Shown one piece after another: positions 4,111-47,214 of a DNA stretch of 64,000 nucleotides. The DNA is taken from contig CAVUCU010000004.1 of the NCBI GenBank assembly GCA_963740085.1, positions 576,001 through 640,000 of the forward strand, read 5' to 3'. Numbering within the stretch: position 1 is the first letter of the stretch; every line of letters starts with the position of its first letter. The stretch is from Nitrospirota bacterium (GTDB lineage: Bacteria; Nitrospirota; UBA9217). The notes under the pieces are model-generated. The model was given only the letters and a program-made list of their open reading frames with translations, was not told the DNA's origin and ran no database searches. A program made the position numbers and the translations under genes.

Positions 4111-5484
4111 ATGAGTAAAATACTCGTTGTTGATGACGAACAGAGCATGCGGGACTTTCTCGCAATCCTGCTTACCAAGGAAGGTCACGAAGTCGTGACT
4201 GCAAAGAATGGTGCCGATGCCCTCCGGGCGGCCCAGGCCGAGATCTTCGACCTGGTGATCACTGATATGAAGATGCCTGGAGCCGACGGCATGGAAGTGC
4301 TCAAGTCTGTCAAAGAAATCTCACCTGAGACCGTCGTGATCATGATCACCGCCTTTGCAACCACTGAGACAGCGGTCGAGGCCATGAAGATCGGGGCGTA
4401 TGATTACATTATCAAACCGTTCAAGGTGGATGAGCTGAAGTTGATCATTAACAATTCGCTCGAAAAGCGCTATCTGAGAAAGGAGAATATCCTTCTCAAG
4501 CGCGAGATCGAGTCGAAGGCGGGATTTGCCAATTTTATCGGGAAAAGCCCACCGATGCAAAAAGTGTTTTCACTGATCCGTCAGGTCTCGGATACGACCA
4601 GCACCGTACTGATAACGGGTGAAAGCGGAACAGGCAAAGAGCTCGTAGCAAAAGCGGTCCATTTCAACAGCCCCCGGAAAAATGGACCGTTCGTAACGGT
4701 CAACTGCGGGGCATTGCCCGAGACGCTTCTGGAAAGCGAATTGTTCGGTTATATGAAGGGTGCCTTCACCGGTGCGTCGTCGAACAAACAGGGGCTTTTC
4801 GAAGCCGCCAACAACGGGACCATTTTTCTCGATGAGATCAGCGCGACTACGCCGGCGCTCCAGATCAAGCTTTTGCGGGTGCTCCAGGAGCGGGAGTTCA
4901 TCCGGGTGGGCGGGACTGCGCGGGTCAAGGTGGATGTGCATGTCATCTCCGCAAGCAACAAGGACCTGCCGTCCGAAATTGCCAAGGACACGTTCCGGGA
5001 GGACCTCTACTATCGTTTAAACGTGATCCCCATCCGCCTGCCTCCGCTCAGGGAGCGGAAGGAAGATATTCCGCTTCTTGCGGATTATTTTCTCAAGAAA
5101 GTCGTCCGCAAAGAGGCCGAACGGGCGCGGATCAAAACGATCGATGCTGATGCCATGAAGGCGCTGATGGCATATCATTGGCCGGGAAATGTTCGTGAGC
5201 TCGAGAATACAATAGAACGAATGATGATCATGACGCCGGAAGACGTTATTCGTCTCGAACAGATACCGGATACCGTAAAATGCCCCTCGGGCTGTTCCGA
5301 CCTTGTCTCGCTTGAGATCCCTGAGACAGGGGTGGACCTCGAGGCGCTTCTGGAAAATGCCGAAAGGACCTTTCTCAGGAAAGCGCTCGAAAAAACAGGT
5401 GGTGTCAAGACAGATGCGGCAAAGCTGCTCGGCCTCACTTTTCGCTCCTTTAGACACCGTCTGCAAAAATACGGCGACACGTAA
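4111..5484 (+). CDS. pilR: Sigma-54-dependent response regulator PilR
   Basis: REC domain, GESGTGKE, GAFTGA, WPGNVREL, C-terminal HTH; follows pilS. Confidence 0.9.
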   Translation: MSKILVVDDEQSMRDFLAILLTKEGHEVVTAKNGADALRAAQAEIFDLVITDMKMPGADGMEVLKSVKEISPETVVIMITAFATTETAVEAMKIGAYDYIIKPFKVDELKLIINNSLEKRYLRKENILLKREIESKAGFANFIGKSPPMQKVFSLIRQVSDTTSTVLITGESGTGKELVAKAVHFNSPRKNGPFVTVNCGALPETLLESELFGYMKGAFTGASSNKQGLFEAANNGTIFLDEISATTPALQIKLLRVLQEREFIRVGGTARVKVDVHVISASNKDLPSEIAKDTFREDLYYRLNVIPIRLPPLRERKEDIPLLADYFLKKVVRKEAERARIKTIDADAMKALMAYHWPGNVRELENTIERMMIMTPEDVIRLEQIPDTVKCPSGCSDLVSLEIPETGVDLEALLENAERTFLRKALEKTGGVKTDAAKLLGLTFRSFRHRLQKYGDT

Positions 5485-8509: not shown

Positions 8510-9365
8510 TCTCGCAGGACTCAAACCTCCGAAACGGGGCAAGGTCAGGGACATCTATGACCTCGATGAGATGCTTCTCATCGTGGCAACAGATAGGATT
8601 TCCGCTTTTGATGTAGTGCTGCCGAATGCGGTCCCCGAAAAAGGCAGGGTGCTTACCCAGATATCGAATTTCTGGTTTTCGAAGACCGCGGACATCGTGC
8701 ACAACCATCTCATATCCCTGGATGTCAGGGACTATCCCACCATATGCAAGCCGCACGCGGCAATCCTTGAGGGGAGAAGCATGCTCGTCAAGAAGACCCA
8801 ACCGCTGCCCGTGGAATGCATTGTGCGGGGATACCTTTCCGGCTCCGGACTGAAGGAGTACGGGACAATGGGCTCGGTGAGCGGCATCAAACTTCCGCCG
8901 GGGTTGACCGAGGCGTCGCGCCTTCCTGAACCGATATTCACGCCGTCCACGAAGGCCGAGATAGGCGAGCATGACGTTAACGTTGATTTTAATGATATAG
9001 TTAAGCGTGTCGGGGCCAACACAGCGGATAAAATAAGGAAATATACGCTCGCTATTTATCAGCGAGCGTGTAAACTTGCTGAGCCCAAAGGGATCATCAT
9101 AGCGGATACGAAGCTTGAATTCGGGGTCCTGAACGGAGAAATTATCCTGATCGATGAAGTGCTCACGCCCGACTCGTCCCGCTTCTGGCCGAAGAACGAC
9201 TACCGGGAAGGAGTTGTGCAGAAGAGCTTTGACAAGCAGTTCGTCCGTGATTATCTCCTTTCACTCAACTGGAACCAGAAACCCCCGGCGCCAGTGCTTC
9301 CCGACGATGTAGTGCGGAAGACGAGCGAAAAATATCTGGAAGTGCTCGGCATGCTGACCACGTAA
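8481..9365 (+). CDS. purC: SAICAR synthetase
   Basis: [51 protein letters not shown]. Confidence 0.97.
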
Positions 9366-9396
9366 AAAATGTCAACCTCGAACAGGCGATGGATTA

Positions 9397-9425
9397 TTGA
9401 TTTTAGCCGCCTTTCCTGATATACT
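9397..9425 (+). promoter_or_regulatory. Sigma70-like promoter
   Basis: TTGATT-17-TATACT upstream of the 9453 ORF. Confidence 0.5.
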
Positions 9426-9452
9426 GCCCTTGCCGTCCATGGGGAATGACAA

Positions 9453-9887
9453 ATGACGATGAAGAGATATCGATCCGATAAAATCGCACTCCTTGTCTTC
9501 TTCGTGCTGTATGCACTCTCACCGCTCACCTGCGACCTGTCCGTAAAATCCATAACACCCCATCTAGCCGGAAGAGCTTCCGGACATTCCTTTCAAAAGA
9601 CTTCTCTTTATCTTCTAGAAGTTTTGCACGAGGTTTTTTTTGGATCCAGCGAACCTGAAGACGATTCATCATCGAATCGCGTCCTTATCAGGAAGAAAAG
9701 CGCCGTTTATCGGGGCAGATTCAATTTTGTCCCGCAGTCAGGACATCCCTTTTCCGCGGCAGATCTGACGTCTGGCCAACATTTCTGCTTCGGGAGAGAA
9801 CGAGCCGAGATCGTGCAGTGCTCTCTCCGGAAGACCAGCGGTTACTGGACCCTGTATTCCGGCCTGTCCCCGCCGCTCCTTTCGTAG
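9453..9887 (+). CDS. Hypothetical signal/TM-anchored protein ending SGLSPPLLS; candidate arrest leader peptide
   Basis: Basic N-terminus, hydrophobic segment, own promoter, C-terminal PP motif 3 codons before stop. Confidence 0.65.
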   Translation: MTMKRYRSDKIALLVFFVLYALSPLTCDLSVKSITPHLAGRASGHSFQKTSLYLLEVLHEVFFGSSEPEDDSSSNRVLIRKKSAVYRGRFNFVPQSGHPFSAADLTSGQHFCFGRERAEIVQCSLRKTSGYWTLYSGLSPPLLS

Positions 9888-9952
9888 ATCCGCGAAAAGC
9901 CATTTCCGGAATGCTCTCCGGAAAATCTTTTGGGAGAAAGAAAGGAAAACCC

Positions 9953-10381
9953 ATGGGAATATTTGACAAACTCCTGGGAAAAGGAGAAAGCTATCCGCCC
10001 CTTGATCCTGCAAGTCCGGCCGCATCGAGGCTTGGATCGATTCAGCCCCATCTGGAGCCGTTCGTGAAACAGGTGTCTGATAAGTTGGAGATTGTGCCGC
10101 TAGATAAGGAGGCTGTGGTGTTCATCGGCAAGCCGCCTGATGCTTTTGGTGCGGCCTGGATCCGCAATGGAAAGATCTCAAACTTTAAAACGCTGATGCA
10201 GGACAAAAAGCTTCCCCCCGACCAGGTCCAACTGCTCTCGGACAAGCTGCGAGATGCATACATACGAAGCAAGGCGGCGGTTCGTTTCTCGATCGCGATC
10301 GGAGGCAAGACGGTCACGGTCACACCTTCTGAGTCGCTGGAGCATGACGTGGCCACCATATTTCAGGAACTGGGGGCATAG
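9953..10381 (+). CDS. Hypothetical protein (142 aa, starts MGIFDKLLGK)
   Basis: SD AAAGGA before ATG 9953; amphipathic N-terminus. Confidence 0.8.
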   Translation: MGIFDKLLGKGESYPPLDPASPAASRLGSIQPHLEPFVKQVSDKLEIVPLDKEAVVFIGKPPDAFGAAWIRNGKISNFKTLMQDKKLPPDQVQLLSDKLRDAYIRSKAAVRFSIAIGGKTVTVTPSESLEHDVATIFQELGA

Positions 10382-10382
10382 A

Positions 10383-10595
10383 ATGTCGCTGATGGCCCCT
10401 GCGTGTCGACAGCAATCGGCCCACAGGGGCTTTTTTGTGGACCCTCCCCGGCAGAGGATCAGCAAGTTCTCCCAGCGGCTGTTCGCGCGGACCGGCGCAT
10501 TCACCGATGCGCTGCTGATAGCAGGCATCATGCTCGTGACAGGCGTCATGATGCCCCCCCTGATCAGAGATCGGAAGCACACGGGAACACCTTAA
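10383..10595 (+). pseudogene. Possible remnant of the last TM helix of an MFS transporter
   Basis: SQRLFARTGAFTDALLIAGIMLVTGVMM resembles an MFS C-terminal helix; resemblance only. Confidence 0.2.
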
Positions 10596-10629
10596 CTTCA
10601 CGATGACGCCAAAGAAAGGGCAGTGAACC

Positions 10630-11097
10630 ATGAAATTGAAGATCGGTTTCTTCGGTGCGGCCATAAATATCGTTGTTGTCACCGGGATGGTTTGTTTCTC
10701 GGCGCTTACCCGCGGCGGCGCCTCATTCAGCGACTATTTTTCGGTCTTTCCGGTGCTGGCATTCGCGGCTTTTATTGTCTACTATTTTGTCGTTTCTTCC
10801 TATGTGGTAAAGCGTGCGGGAATTCAGAAACCGGCTTTTATTGATTCGCTCGTCGGAATGCTCGCTGAACTTATTCTTGTCACGGTAGGGGTCGTGATCT
10901 ACAGCCTGTGGATCACGCTCTCGGGTATGCACGGACAGGACCTCCGGATGATCGCCTCGGAACTCACGACCGGCATTCTGGTGAACCTCCTCTGGGTATT
11001 TGCAATGTTCCTTGTCCATATCTTGATCGCAGGAAATATCGCCGGCCTCGTCGGCTGGTACGTGTTGAGCAAGCTCTCTCCGAAAAGTCTTTCCTAG
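10630..11097 (+). CDS. Hypothetical 4-TM membrane protein
   Basis: Four hydrophobic segments in 155 aa. Confidence 0.75.
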   Translation: MKLKIGFFGAAINIVVVTGMVCFSALTRGGASFSDYFSVFPVLAFAAFIVYYFVVSSYVVKRAGIQKPAFIDSLVGMLAELILVTVGVVIYSLWITLSGMHGQDLRMIASELTTGILVNLLWVFAMFLVHILIAGNIAGLVGWYVLSKLSPKSLS

Positions 11098-11354
11098 CCG
11101 TCCGCAGATGCGAGCGATGCCTGCTTCAATATCCCGATCCTCATTTGGATAAACCCGAAGATCGGCCCGACCGGGGTCGCCGAAGTCTTTTCGCGACAGT
11201 GTGATCGTTTGACATGGTGGATCAGTTCCCCTGCAGATTTCATATTGCATTCTCAGCCTGAACAGTGTTAGCATATTTTTACGTATTACATTTATTATCC
11301 GGCGGTTCTCCCGTAAACGGCGTGAATGAACGTTTCCAGCATAGGACCCGCGTA

Positions 11355-12074
11355 ATGACCGGGACACGCATGTTTTTTATCTCCTTCTGCGCGGTATTGT
11401 CCTTATCGTCCCCCAATGCCGCTGAACGGGAACCAGGTCCGCTTCGGCAGGCAAAGGCAGCCATCGACGGCCCTGTCGCCCCGACACTCCGTCACGCTCC
11501 TGTCTACCGAATCCCGCTCCGCGTGCATTTGGGAGAGAGCGGACGAAGTCCGGGGGATTTCATTGCAATACTCGATGAGATCAACTCCATCTGGCTGACG
11601 CAGGCGGGGATTTGCTTCGAGATGCAGATCGTACTGGATAACAGGCCTCTTGAGCAGGGTATGGACATCTGGTTCATGCCGAACCTGCCCGGAGGAGCGG
11701 GGCTTAACGGTTACTTTCGAGACGAGCACAATATTCAGGTGCGGGACACGCCCGTCCTGGGACCTGCCGCGAATCCCGCCCACTATCCAGCTGCACGCAC
11801 GGCGGCGCATGAGTTCGGGCATGGCCTCTCCCTCCAGCACCGCCAGAATTCCGACGACAATCTGATGCGGTCCAAGACCTTTGGATGGCAGTTGAACAGG
11901 AAAGAAATCCAGGAAGCGCGTGGAGCTGCGGCGGAGAAGGCCTTGCAGGACACTGCGCCCAGAAAATGCGAAGAACCCAGGATATTGCCTACGCCAGAGT
12001 CTCCCGTTGTCTCAACCATGTCGAATACCGGGCCGTATCGTGATCGTGCAAACCTTGACGCCGATAAACACTAG
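11355..12074 (+). CDS. Secreted metzincin-like zinc metallopeptidase
   Basis: HEFGHGLSLQH zinc motif plus Met-turn NLM; signal-peptide-like N-terminus; start uncertain. Confidence 0.7.
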   Translation: MTGTRMFFISFCAVLSLSSPNAAEREPGPLRQAKAAIDGPVAPTLRHAPVYRIPLRVHLGESGRSPGDFIAILDEINSIWLTQAGICFEMQIVLDNRPLEQGMDIWFMPNLPGGAGLNGYFRDEHNIQVRDTPVLGPAANPAHYPAARTAAHEFGHGLSLQHRQNSDDNLMRSKTFGWQLNRKEIQEARGAAAEKALQDTAPRKCEEPRILPTPESPVVSTMSNTGPYRDRANLDADKH

Positions 12075-31559: not shown

Positions 31560-31635
31560 TGGAGGCGGCGATCGGATTTGAACCGATGAATGAAGGTTTT
31601 GCAGACCTCTGCCTTAGCCACTTGGCTACGCCGCC
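31560..31635 (-). tRNA. tRNA-Cys(GCA)
   Basis: GGCGGCG acceptor stem, anticodon loop CT-GCA-AA, TTCAAAT T-loop, encoded CCA. Confidence 0.95.
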
Positions 31636-31757: not shown

Positions 31758-31833
31758 TGGAGCGGGTGGCGGGATTCGAACCCGTGACCTCAACCTTGGC
31801 AAGGTCGCGCTCTACCAACTGAGCTACACCCGC
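31758..31833 (-). tRNA. tRNA-Gly(GCC)
   Basis: GCGGGTG acceptor stem, anticodon loop TT-GCC-AA, TTCGAAT T-loop, encoded CCA. Confidence 0.95.
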
Positions 31834-47125: not shown

Positions 47126-47214
47126 GCCGCTGTGGCGAAATTGGCAGACGCAAGAGACTTAAAATCTCTCGACGGGCAACTGTCGTACCGGTTCGATTCC
47201 GGTCAGCGGCACCA
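47126..47214 (+). tRNA. tRNA-Leu(TAA)
   Basis: GCCGCTG acceptor stem, anticodon loop CT-TAA-AA, long variable arm, TTCGATT T-loop, CCA. Confidence 0.95.

Follow-up and report, generated by a model that had tools for sequence, protein, structure and literature searches.

A candidate ribosome-arrest leader peptide with a conserved C-terminal SGLSPP upstream of an uncharacterized gene in a Nitrospirota bacterium

Few arrest peptides are known in bacteria, and they cluster around R-x-P-P or R-A-G-P cores and around Sec or YidC genes. Four criteria for monitoring substrates are given in the excerpted text of PMC7897499: (i) a small ORF (80-200 aa) of unknown function that directly precedes a sec or yidC gene, (ii) an N-terminal secretion signal or transmembrane segment, (iii) a C-terminal sequence conserved among homologs, and (iv) a distance of over 40 residues from the signal to the putative arrest sequence. 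In ApcA, ApdA, and ApdP, any substitution of the Arg residue abolished arrest and the change from Ala to Ser was only partly permissive, according to an excerpt of PMC12992588, and the RAPP-like motifs used as queries in the extract of PMC10987492 include HAPP and RSPP. In E. coli, G, L, S, or T before Pro-Pro attenuates polyproline pausing, and the L/PP/L context is weak (PMC5811046, in part).

In the present study, we analyzed a leader gene, ORF144, and the gene downstream, ORF142, in the window (the whole 64,000-nt stretch of DNA). An initial annotation proposed that ORF144 encodes an arrest peptide that controls ORF142 by sequestering its Shine-Dalgarno (SD) sequence. We regard ORF144 as a good, though still unproven, candidate for a new regulator of the ribosome-stalling type.

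ORF144 and its protein family

The features of the leader gene are as follows.

9397..9425, plus strand: sigma-70-like promoter candidate, TTGATT-17 nt-TG-TATACT (9/12 matches)
9453..9887, plus strand: ORF144, leader gene, 144 aa (10 close homologs, 1 genome locus, 186 representatives)
9480..9536, plus strand: hydrophobic segment of the export type, preceded by a basic stretch (hydropathy, AlphaFold2)
9510-9527, plus strand: conserved Y-A-x-S-P-L motif inside the signal segment (family alignment)
9606..9626, plus strand: motif 2, [IL]-F-L-x-E-L-L, in the predicted helix 44-61 (family alignment, AlphaFold2)
9681..9704, plus strand: basic motif 3, [IV]-L-x-[KR]-K-K-R-A, with S for R in the window (family alignment)
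9840..9875, plus strand: conserved C-terminal block G-Y-W-T-L-Y-S-G-L-S-P-P, candidate stall sequence (family alignment)
9876..9887, plus strand: variable tail L-L-S and TAG stop, overlapping the anti-SD TCCTTTC at 9877-9883 (sequence, folding)

Direct reading located the 144-aa ORF of the initial annotation at 9453-9887. Its C terminus is Y-S-G-L-S-P-P-L-L-S-stop, with the Pro-Pro codons at 9870-9875 and the stop codon at 9885-9887, and a second ATG at 9459 is an alternative start that corresponds to the start used by homologs. The promoter assigned to it is well placed at 9397-9425, the sole promoter-like match in 9000-11500; however, 1.7 such matches are expected by chance, and the candidate is plausible by position only.

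The protein database had no entry identical to ORF144, although ORF142 is present there as P0011. ORF144, ORF142, and three distant members of the ORF144 family had no Pfam or NCBIfam match, and in the ESM Atlas ORF144 and ORF142 fell merely into unnamed "hypothetical protein" clusters. The missing entry and the blank domain searches would suit an intergenic leader in which the frame is open by chance. However, full-length homologs of equal size were found (10 close homologs and 186 representatives), and the motifs are kept although the codons of the window differ synonymously from those of L001, a second locus that carries both genes. On this comparative sequence evidence, the chance-frame reading is effectively refuted already, and ORF144 is a real, conserved gene whose product belongs to a hitherto undescribed protein family (about 140 aa).

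The family was collected by a profile search, which returned 186 representatives (E<=0.001) with a length of about 140 aa; 151 of these were examined. The initial annotation had staked its proposal on conservation of SGLSPP at homolog C termini, and such conservation was found. GLSPP is invariant in 12/12 close sequences (the window, 10/10 close homologs, and the L001 ORF), and x-G-x-[S/A]-P-P lies near the C terminus in 147/151 sequences, the other four being short (87-132 aa). Among these 147 aligned sequences, Pro-Pro is present in all, G in 143, and S in 141. The near-invariant form is [Y/F/H]-S-G-L-S-P-P, 2-3 codons ahead of the stop. LSPP occurs in 101 of the 147 sequences, followed by HSPP (15), TSPP (6), NSPP (5), RSPP, ISPP, and PSPP (4 each), PAPP (3), HAPP and VSPP (2 each), and IAPP (1). 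The tail after Pro-Pro comprises 1-7 residues in 141/147 and 2-3 residues in 104/147 (2 in 78, 3 in 26). Conservation is graded from G128 to S134, with its peak at G-x-S-P-P (4.3 bits at Pro-Pro), and then falls to about 1.3 bits, a profile that looks like that of a tunnel-resident arrest sequence.

The motif is also carried by 17/21 hits whose best match spans the N-terminal part of the profile only (ending at 81-101); therefore, its conservation is not a mere search bias. Since four of the five GLSPP codons differ synonymously between the window and L001, selection acts on the amino acids. The initial annotation did not recognize LSPP as a described arrest motif. In the literature searched, "SGLSPP" occurs in 0 papers, and LSPP lacks the Arg of RAPP-type arrest. 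A C-terminal sorting signal (PEP-CTERM-like) was ruled out, since what follows the motif is only 1-7 residues long and lacks a hydrophobic segment.

The N terminus is basic and hydrophobic, as the initial annotation described, and its hydropathy peaks at 1.8 in residues 10-28. In 144/151 sequences, an uncharged run of 11-19 residues precedes the Ser of A-x-S-P and follows a mean net charge of +2.5. The Y-A-x-S-P-L columns are conserved for A (120/150), S (141/150), P (148/150), and L (127/150), and those of motif 3 for K79 (144/151), R81 (123/150), and A82 (126/150). The expectation that only the signal and the terminal SGLSPP are conserved was not borne out, because A-x-S-P and two internal motifs are kept too. 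AlphaFold2, run with 131 sequences, gave a pLDDT of 63.6, a pTM of 0.32, and helices at 3-29 and 44-61 only, which fits the poorly structured spacer that had been claimed. This model shows no globular fold, and the body is predicted to be mostly disordered. The C-terminal part of ORF144 is predicted to lie outside the cytoplasm, and ORF142 has no signal sequence. A lipoprotein N terminus was ruled out; the Cys of L-T-C is Tyr in most homologs.

The downstream gene and the SD hairpin

The features downstream of the conserved C-terminal block are as follows.

9877..9946, plus strand: nested hairpin with an outer anti-SD/SD helix, a middle stem 9895-9899/9927-9931, and an inner stem-loop 9903-9924 (RNAfold, pair probabilities)
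9940..9946, plus strand: Shine-Dalgarno GAAAGGA of ORF142, 6 nt before the ATG at 9953
9953..10381, plus strand: ORF142, conserved cytoplasmic alpha/beta protein, 142 aa, presumed regulated gene (56 homologs, 34 genome loci)
10418..10441, plus strand: terminator-like hairpin and T-run that would end the two-gene unit (terminator scan, site at 10418-10431)

All pairing elements of the initial annotation were found by direct reading. The anti-SD is the exact complement of the SD, AAAAG (9895-9899) pairs with CTTTT (9927-9931), and the inner stem-loop is TTTCCGGA-ATGCTC-TCCGGAAA. RNAfold of 9860-9960 returned exactly the nested hairpin (MFE -31.6 kcal/mol), which confirms the predicted long hairpin hiding the SD. 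In the context of 9800-9990, the SD had a mean P(unpaired) of 0.02 (paired P=0.98), and 6.86 of its 7 nucleotides were paired with the 25 nt after Pro-Pro. The total fold energy of 9860-9960 is ordinary (z = -1.21; 22/200 shuffles fold equally well). When only 9876-9939 was shuffled, the SD was equally hidden in 6/300 and equal cross-pairing occurred in 2/300. Among 34 other automatically chosen start sites in the window, 2 were equally hidden, a rough and weak control in which some starts are clearly internal.

When a ribosome mask was applied in silico to the window, P(unpaired) of the SD rose from 0.02 to 0.68 with the mask at Pro-Pro and to 0.86 with the mask at the stop; the values in L001 were 0.15 and 0.58. 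The claim that a stalled ribosome frees the SD thus holds in silico for the window, but not for L001, where the SD stays hidden with the mask at Pro-Pro. Moreover, SD pairing in L001 does not exceed chance (equalled in 43/300 and 47/300 shuffles), and its spacer has no hairpin comparable to the inner hairpin of the window. This comparison of hairpins covers two loci, the window and L001.

ORF144 and ORF142 are separated by 65 nt in the window and by 50 nt in L001, whose other neighbors differ, and the stop follows Pro-Pro 3 and 5 codons on, respectively. A member of the ORF144 family lies upstream of an ORF142 homolog in only 1/34 genome loci. Indirectly, the largest contig of 4/10 close ORF144 homologs matches that of an ORF142 homolog in size (18032, 4286, 2961, 4266). 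On these apparently shared contigs, identity is 49-54% for ORF144 vs 77-89% for ORF142, and ORF144 evolves much faster than ORF142. Six distant members of the family, on contigs of 9.7-157 kb, had no size match to any ORF142 homolog found, a weak comparison limited by sensitivity; contig size as a proxy for co-occurrence is uninformative for such distant members. The wider ORF144 family may not always precede the ORF142 gene.

The 142-aa protein had been described as being without an assignable function, and Pfam, NCBIfam, and a PDB fold search were indeed all blank for it; the AlphaFold2 model used (pLDDT 88) had no PDB match at E<=0.001. ORF142 is not a Sec or YidC component. A Pfam search of 73/124 neighboring ORFs at the 34 ORF142 loci, hand-picked and mostly the nearest and larger ones, found no conserved synteny that names a function. 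A tblastn search of P0119 and ORF142 against plasmids gave no match. Complex prediction for ORF144 with ORF142 returned no answer (score 0.00), which has no bearing either way.

An nhaA-I riboswitch lies upstream of ORF142 homologs in 13/34 loci, and such homologs belong to other phyla; in these other settings, the leader of this gene family has a regulatory role. The region 9300-10500 had no Rfam match at E<=1, including nhaA-I (RF03057), and the whole window had no nhaA-I match at the gathering score. For the genes associated with nhaA-I, the portion of the supplements of PMC9646797 that was available gives only "[Hypothetical] 171".

Arrest leader and alternative explanations

In our tentative view, ORF144 is most likely a cis-acting translated leader of ORF142, similar to SecM, VemP, MifM, and the RAPP-type peptides. 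Ribosomes would slow or stall at S-P-P, the open hairpin would last longer, and ORF142 would be initiated. Export or membrane insertion of the N terminus would pull the nascent chain and shorten the stall; impaired export or membrane energetics would then raise ORF142 output. Since the ORF142 homologs in other phyla follow Li+/Na+-responsive nhaA-I riboswitches, the sensed condition may be tied to cation or membrane stress. The parts of the initial proposal that stood are the conservation, the N terminus, and the hairpin in the window. Motif conservation, the shape of the profile, selection on amino acids, and the absence of a globular fold all argue for an arrest leader, as do the linkage to ORF142, the masked SD in the window, the faster evolution of ORF144, and the nhaA-I leaders elsewhere. 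RAPP-like variants (H-S-P-P, R-S-P-P, or H-A-P-P at the motif site) in 21/147 family members and the features numbered (ii)-(iv) in the excerpted PMC7897499 point in the same direction. Against it, the Arg of RAPP-type arrest is absent from LSPP, and pairing in L001 is at chance. The weak polyproline context, the ordinary hairpin energy, the single locus among 34, and the absence of a Sec or YidC function in ORF142 also count against an arrest leader. So do three further conserved motifs, Y-A-x-S-P-L, [IL]-F-L-x-E-L-L, and L-x-K-K-K-R-A, for which a pure signal-plus-arrest model has no need.

These motifs may instead act in a mature protein. That ORF144 encodes an ordinary exported or membrane-anchored small protein sharing an operon with ORF142 is a distinct possibility. 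SGLSPP would then serve for binding, processing, or modification, and A-x-S-P would mark the junction of a signal anchor that is not cleaved; the SD hairpin would be incidental or a source of mild coupling. Four separate conserved motifs, rather than the signal and the C terminus alone, and a length conserved at about 140 aa in 186 representatives would be natural in such a protein, which is also compatible with the failure of LSPP to provide the Arg of RAPP-type arrest, its weak polyproline context, the non-significant SD pairing in L001, and the long contigs of distant members without a size match to ORF142 homologs. In L002, L003, L005, and L006, a small membrane ORF of another kind precedes the ORF142 homologs, and ORF142 may accordingly work with membrane partners. 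However, only two helices are predicted even from 131 aligned sequences, and the C terminus of ORF144 is predicted outside the cytoplasm, whereas ORF142 has no signal sequence. In C-terminal recognition tags, the very last residues normally matter; the abrupt end of conservation at Pro-Pro and the short variable tail are unusual for such a tag. The pairing of the codons after Pro-Pro with the SD, rare in shuffles of the window (2-6/300), also speaks against an ordinary protein.

Two further alternatives concern the hairpin itself. In plain translational coupling, any ribosome that finishes ORF144 would melt it, ORF142 output would follow ORF144 translation, and Pro-Pro would be conserved for another reason. 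A mask at the stop opens the SD no less than one at Pro-Pro (0.86 vs 0.68 in the window, 0.58 vs 0.15 in L001), the stop is only 3 or 5 codons past Pro-Pro, and, judged by E. coli rules, the polyproline context is a weak one. Nevertheless, we consider such coupling unlikely: it leaves unexplained the kept export signal and a near-invariant S-G-L-S-P-P at 2-3 codons from the stop (147/151), and, for coupling of the reinitiation type, spacers of 65 and 50 nt are long. The inner hairpin at 9903-9924, followed by AATCTTTTGGG, was matched by the terminator scan on the plus strand (8 pairs, 4 G-C, loop 6, 5 T in 8) and could act as an intrinsic terminator or attenuator, with transcriptional control and no SD masking. 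However, its T-run is short and interrupted, it is nested within the SD-masking helix, and the L001 spacer has no comparable hairpin. Since the scan found 7 terminator-like sites vs 3.0 +/- 2.0 in shuffles, false positives are common, and a terminator is very improbable here.

The arrest-leader explanation may be extended, with considerable doubt, to a joint reading in which proteins with SGLSPP form a new homologous class of arrest peptides that sense force or export, stall through S-G-L-S-P-P without an Arg, and replace the Li+/Na+ riboswitch in Nitrospirota-like lineages. The invariant A-x-S-P would constitute a site for signal peptidase that Pro at +1 renders uncleavable, and the uncleaved nascent chain would stay tethered at the translocon. 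Failure of export or membrane energy under cation stress would lead to ORF142 synthesis. VemP, which couples salinity to the choice of SecDF, offers a parallel.

If ORF144 is an arrest leader, a large family of homologs built on another invariant core and placed before a gene that is under a Li+/Na+ riboswitch in other phyla, would widen the sequence rules for stalling. It would also provide a function-linked handle on two uncharacterized protein families and a natural case of a protein leader and a riboswitch as alternative controls of one gene. The predicted arrest is open to direct tests by standard in vitro translation and reporter assays.

Comparison with described leaders

Similar to SecM, VemP, and MifM as described in the excerpt of PMC7897499, ORF144 is small, lies directly upstream of the presumed regulated gene, and has an N-terminal signal, a conserved C terminus more than 40 residues away, and, in silico in the window, an SD-hiding stem-loop that would open when a ribosome halts close to the end of the ORF. 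Regarding the four criteria in that excerpt, the size and position of ORF144 fit (i), but ORF142 is no sec or yidC gene; (ii) a signal is predicted from hydropathy, charge, and helix 3-29; (iii) the C terminus is conserved (GLSPP 12/12, motif 147/151); and (iv) residue 28 and S134 are some 105 residues apart. In contrast to those three systems, as far as the excerpt describes them, ORF142 is cytoplasmic and is not secA, secDF, or yidC, and SGLSPP resembles none of their arrest sequences. Furthermore, the signal of ORF144 holds Y-A-x-S-P-L, two internal motifs are conserved, and arrest is a candidate property only.

ORF144 shares with ApdA, ApdP, CruR, and the RGPP/RAPP proteins a localization signal and an x-x-P-P core located within a few residues of the stop (PMC10987492 and PMC12992588, both in excerpt). 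Like the RAPP-like peptides in these excerpts, it is small, has a predicted secretory or membrane location and a motif near the C terminus, and precedes another gene (cf. PMC12992588). Its lineage distribution is likewise patchy, and its Ser takes the place of Ala, a change that is partly permissive in those peptides. However, the RAPP-like (RQH) core is [R/Q/H]-[A/G]-P-P with an irreplaceable Arg, and that position is Leu in the window (L-S-P-P) and in 101/147 members. The RAPP-like peptides, as excerpted, share the motif alone, whereas the ORF144 family is homologous throughout and its conserved block reaches S-G upstream.

As in EF-P-dependent XPPX pauses, ORF144 has two consecutive prolines, which slow peptide-bond formation (PMC5811046, in part). 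Unlike the pauses described there, the residues before its Pro-Pro are attenuating in E. coli, and SGLSPP is conserved beyond any generic need. ORF144 occupies the same leader position before an ORF142-type gene as the nhaA-I (Li+-I) leaders (RF03057; PMC9646797). The leader is an RNA aptamer there and a translated ORF here; however, both probably serve the same purpose, the conditional expression of the ORF142 gene.

Layout of the ORF144-ORF142 unit and its predicted hairpin

ORF144, the 144-aa candidate leader, lies directly 5' of ORF142, which encodes a 142-aa protein. The coordinates in the initial annotation were exact on direct reading and in the ORF list. The elements of the unit are listed below.

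9397-9425: promoter-like site (1 found vs. 1.7 expected; count not above chance)
9453-9887, + strand: ORF144; its second ATG (9459) matches the homologs' start position
9870-9875, + strand: Pro-Pro codons of ORF144, within the C-terminus Y-S-G-L-S-P-P-L-L-S-stop
9877-9883, + strand: anti-SD TCCTTTC, the exact complement of GAAAGGA at 9940-9946
9940-9946, + strand: ORF142 SD GAAAGGA, 6 nt 5' of the ATG
9953-10381, + strand: ORF142, with its ATG at 9953
10418-10431: terminator-like site 3' of ORF142

The promoter proposed upstream of ORF144 coincides with a promoter-like site, but such sites are no more numerous than expected by chance.

RNAfold returned the nested hairpin as originally drawn. 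Its total folding energy was ordinary (z = -1.21; 22/200 shuffles folded equally well). In a 191-nt context, the ORF142 SD was hidden (mean P(unpaired) = 0.02), with 6.86 of the 7 SD nucleotides pairing to the 25 nt just after Pro-Pro. When 9876-9939 alone was shuffled, the SD was equally hidden in 6/300 sequences and cross-pairing was equal in 2/300. Unlike the total energy of the hairpin, the pairing of the SD with the post-Pro-Pro segment is unusual. Among other start sites in the window, 2/34 were as hidden; these were picked automatically and several are evidently internal, making this a weak control.

A ribosome at Pro-Pro was simulated by forbidding pairing for everything up to 10 nt beyond the A-site codon, which raised SD accessibility in the window from 0.02 to 0.68; with the ribosome at the ORF144 stop codon, it reached 0.86. 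At L001, the one genome locus of 34 that shares this arrangement, SD pairing was no better than in shuffles (43/300 and 47/300).

Two further ORFs lie 3' of the terminator-like site: a 155-aa hydrophobic ORF (10630-11097, + strand) with no family match, and a 269-aa ORF (11265-12074, + strand) with the zinc-protease-like motif H-E-F-G-H-G-L-S-L-Q-H, which matched Peptidase_M10 weakly and below the cut-off (E = 0.026). The sole Rfam matches at gathering score in the whole window were three tRNA genes (31563-31635, - strand; 31761-31833, - strand; 47126-47211, + strand).

The ORF144 family

A word-based protein search with ORF144 found 10 proteins of 143-146 aa with 48-58% identity, all ending in SGLSPP plus three residues. 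Among 34 genome loci with ORF142 homologs, one (L001, a Nitrospirota MAG) had an ORF144 homolog directly upstream (HMM E = 1.4e-14); it was 25% identical overall and ended in Y-S-G-L-S-P-P-L-L-I-C-S. A family profile of 12 sequences (the window ORF144, the close homologs, and L001), searched against 1.84 billion representatives, matched 186 proteins at E<=0.001, 23 of them at E<=1e-10. Nearly all were 130-175 aa and aligned end to end.

We examined 151 sequences, namely the window ORF144 and the best 150 of the 186 matches. The pattern x-G-x-[S/A]-P-P was present near the C-terminus in 147/151, a count that is partly circular because the profile itself included the motif; exact SGLSPP was found in 85/151. 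The four members without the motif were short (87-132 aa). Among matches confined to the N-terminus (best stretch ending at profile position 81-101), 17/21 carried the motif, and the remaining four were the short ones. The tail after Pro-Pro was two residues in 78/147, three in 26/147, and one to seven in 141/147. Since four of the five GLSPP codons differ synonymously between the window and L001, selection acts on the peptide, not the RNA. The predicted conservation of SGLSPP at homolog C-termini was thus borne out in the close homologs, L001, and the wider family.

The family had no entry in Pfam or NCBIfam, and the string SGLSPP did not occur in the literature searched. The sequence comparisons indicate that ORF144 is a real gene and a member of a large, undescribed family. 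The protein database held no entry identical to the window ORF144, while ORF142 is present there as P0011; ORF144 was probably not called as a gene in the source genome annotation.

In the family alignment, a basic N-terminus (mean net charge +2.5) is followed by 11-19 uncharged residues up to Y-A-[IV]-S-P-L (A in 120/150, S in 141/150, P in 148/150). The small residues at -3/-1 before an invariant Pro resemble a signal peptidase I site in which Pro occupies +1. A +1 Pro is disfavoured and reportedly interferes with signal peptidase I (PMC10269814). Further motifs are [IL]-F-L-x-E-L-L, within a predicted helix; [IV]-L-x-[KR]-K-K-R-A; and a C-terminal block, G-F-x-P-L-[YHF]-S-G-L-S-P-P. Conservation climbs toward Pro-Pro (4.3 bits) and falls sharply to ~1.3 bits directly after. 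The Arg of the K-K-K-R-A motif, conserved in 123/150 members, is Ser in the window protein (residue 81 in the 142-aa numbering; window 9699-9701).

AlphaFold2 (131 aligned sequences) predicted only helices 3-29 and 44-61, with coil beyond residue 61 (pLDDT 63.6, pTM 0.32). A second strongly hydrophobic window was present in only 15/144 members. The overall picture is an export-targeted chain, mostly unstructured, whose C-terminal dodecapeptide is conserved. Conservation had been expected only in the signal and the terminal SGLSPP; the terminal motif is indeed conserved, but so are three further motifs, which suggests functions beyond a signal and an arrest sequence.

ORF142 and its varied leaders

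ORF142 is well conserved: homologs fall into 56 clusters and were present at 34 genome loci, which span eight or more phylum-level groups. Its model is a confident alpha/beta structure (pLDDT 88), for which a PDB fold search gave nothing at E<=0.001, and no Pfam or NCBIfam family was assigned. Its neighbours vary by locus (73/124 listed neighbour ORFs scanned). The ORF144-type leader was seen in the window and in 1/34 loci; other elements in this position were as follows.

L004, L008, L013, L022, L026-L034: nhaA-I riboswitch (Rfam RF03057), e.g., L031:4788-4837 and 4887-4943; L028:4795-4843 and 4893-4949
L002:2500-2862, L003:4640-5006, L005:900-1261, L006:4650-5006: small membrane ORF with a conserved element

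The nhaA-I riboswitch stood just upstream of ORF142 homologs on the same strand in 13/34 loci, in tandem in six of them (19 matches altogether). PMC9646797 describes nhaA-I RNAs as validated Li+-responsive switches, with some Na+-responsive variants, one of them upstream of a "hypothetical" gene; its supplement counts 171 "hypothetical" genes downstream of nhaA-I without giving identities. Because nhaA-I precedes it in these loci, the uncharacterised ORF142 family is tied to Li+/Na+ stress regulation.

Four Thermodesulfobacteriota-type loci instead have another small membrane ORF, about 67 aa long and beginning MKPFALAALC, followed by a strongly conserved element, comprising the full anti-16S-type AAGGAGGTGATC and then ATTCAAGTTTCTGGTTAAGG; the latter could encode a tiny peptide, I-Q-V-S-G-stop. 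The ORF142 homolog's own SD lies about 60 nt beyond this element, which may be another kind of leader. Lineage-specific conserved 5' leaders were also observed about 60-90 nt (L017, L023, L025) or 15-40 nt (L014, L020, L021) upstream of the match start. The sequence GGGCTAG[GA]ATAAA...CCCGTCG.GAGAC is common to the gammaproteobacterial loci, and TATTCTGTCGCCGG.CAGAAAGG to the Desulfuromonadales loci. None of the lineage-specific leaders matched Rfam at gathering score. Judging by these varied upstream elements (nhaA-I, small membrane ORF with its element, ORF144), ORF142 is a conditionally expressed gene, and different lineages fill the regulatory slot in front of it in different ways.

Candidate mechanism and comparison with known arrest systems

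The evidence fits best with ORF144 acting as a translated leader. On this reading, the ORF142 SD would be freed when a ribosome slowed at S-P-P, or simply ending ORF144, covers 9877-9883. We tentatively favor programmed arrest as the mechanism, although our confidence in it is limited. The main rival, which we regard as a realistic possibility, is that ORF144 is an ordinary exported protein in one operon with ORF142. Distant family members on long contigs gave no sign of sharing a contig with detected ORF142 homologs, weak evidence given the limited sensitivity of both searches; the family at large may stand in front of different genes, or of no gene at all.

Plain translational coupling, in which no pause is programmed, ranks after the exported-protein reading and appears rather unlikely. 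L001 fits coupling better than stalling: its SD stays hidden with the ribosome at Pro-Pro (0.15) and opens with the ribosome at the stop codon (0.58). A programmed pause is favored over coupling by the near-invariant SGLSPP motif, by its constant spacing from the stop codon, and by conservation that ends sharply with the codon that would occupy the A site. The same is true of the export signal kept >100 residues upstream of the motif, the absence of a predicted fold, and the much faster divergence of ORF144 than ORF142 (49-54% vs. 77-89% identity in four pairs, apparently on the same contigs).

Against the monitoring-substrate screen of PMC7897499, ORF144 agrees with criteria ii-iv and departs from the sec/yidC part of criterion i. 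Under the E. coli polyproline rules, pausing is attenuated when G, L, S, or T precedes Pro-Pro (PMC5811046), which counts against arrest at SGLSPP. ORF144 would work, or is built, like SecM, VemP, and MifM, but is not a member by sequence. The same applies to the RAPP/RGPP leaders, a recently expanded group that PMC10987492 and PMC12992588 place upstream of diverse genes: the defining Arg is generally absent, H or R occupying its position in only 21/147 family members, and the motif is not strictly RAPP-like. In ApcA, ApdA, and ApdP, arrest was lost in all 19 Arg substitutions and the Ala-to-Ser change was only partly permissive (PMC12992588). We regard ORF144 as a candidate for a new variety of arrest leader.
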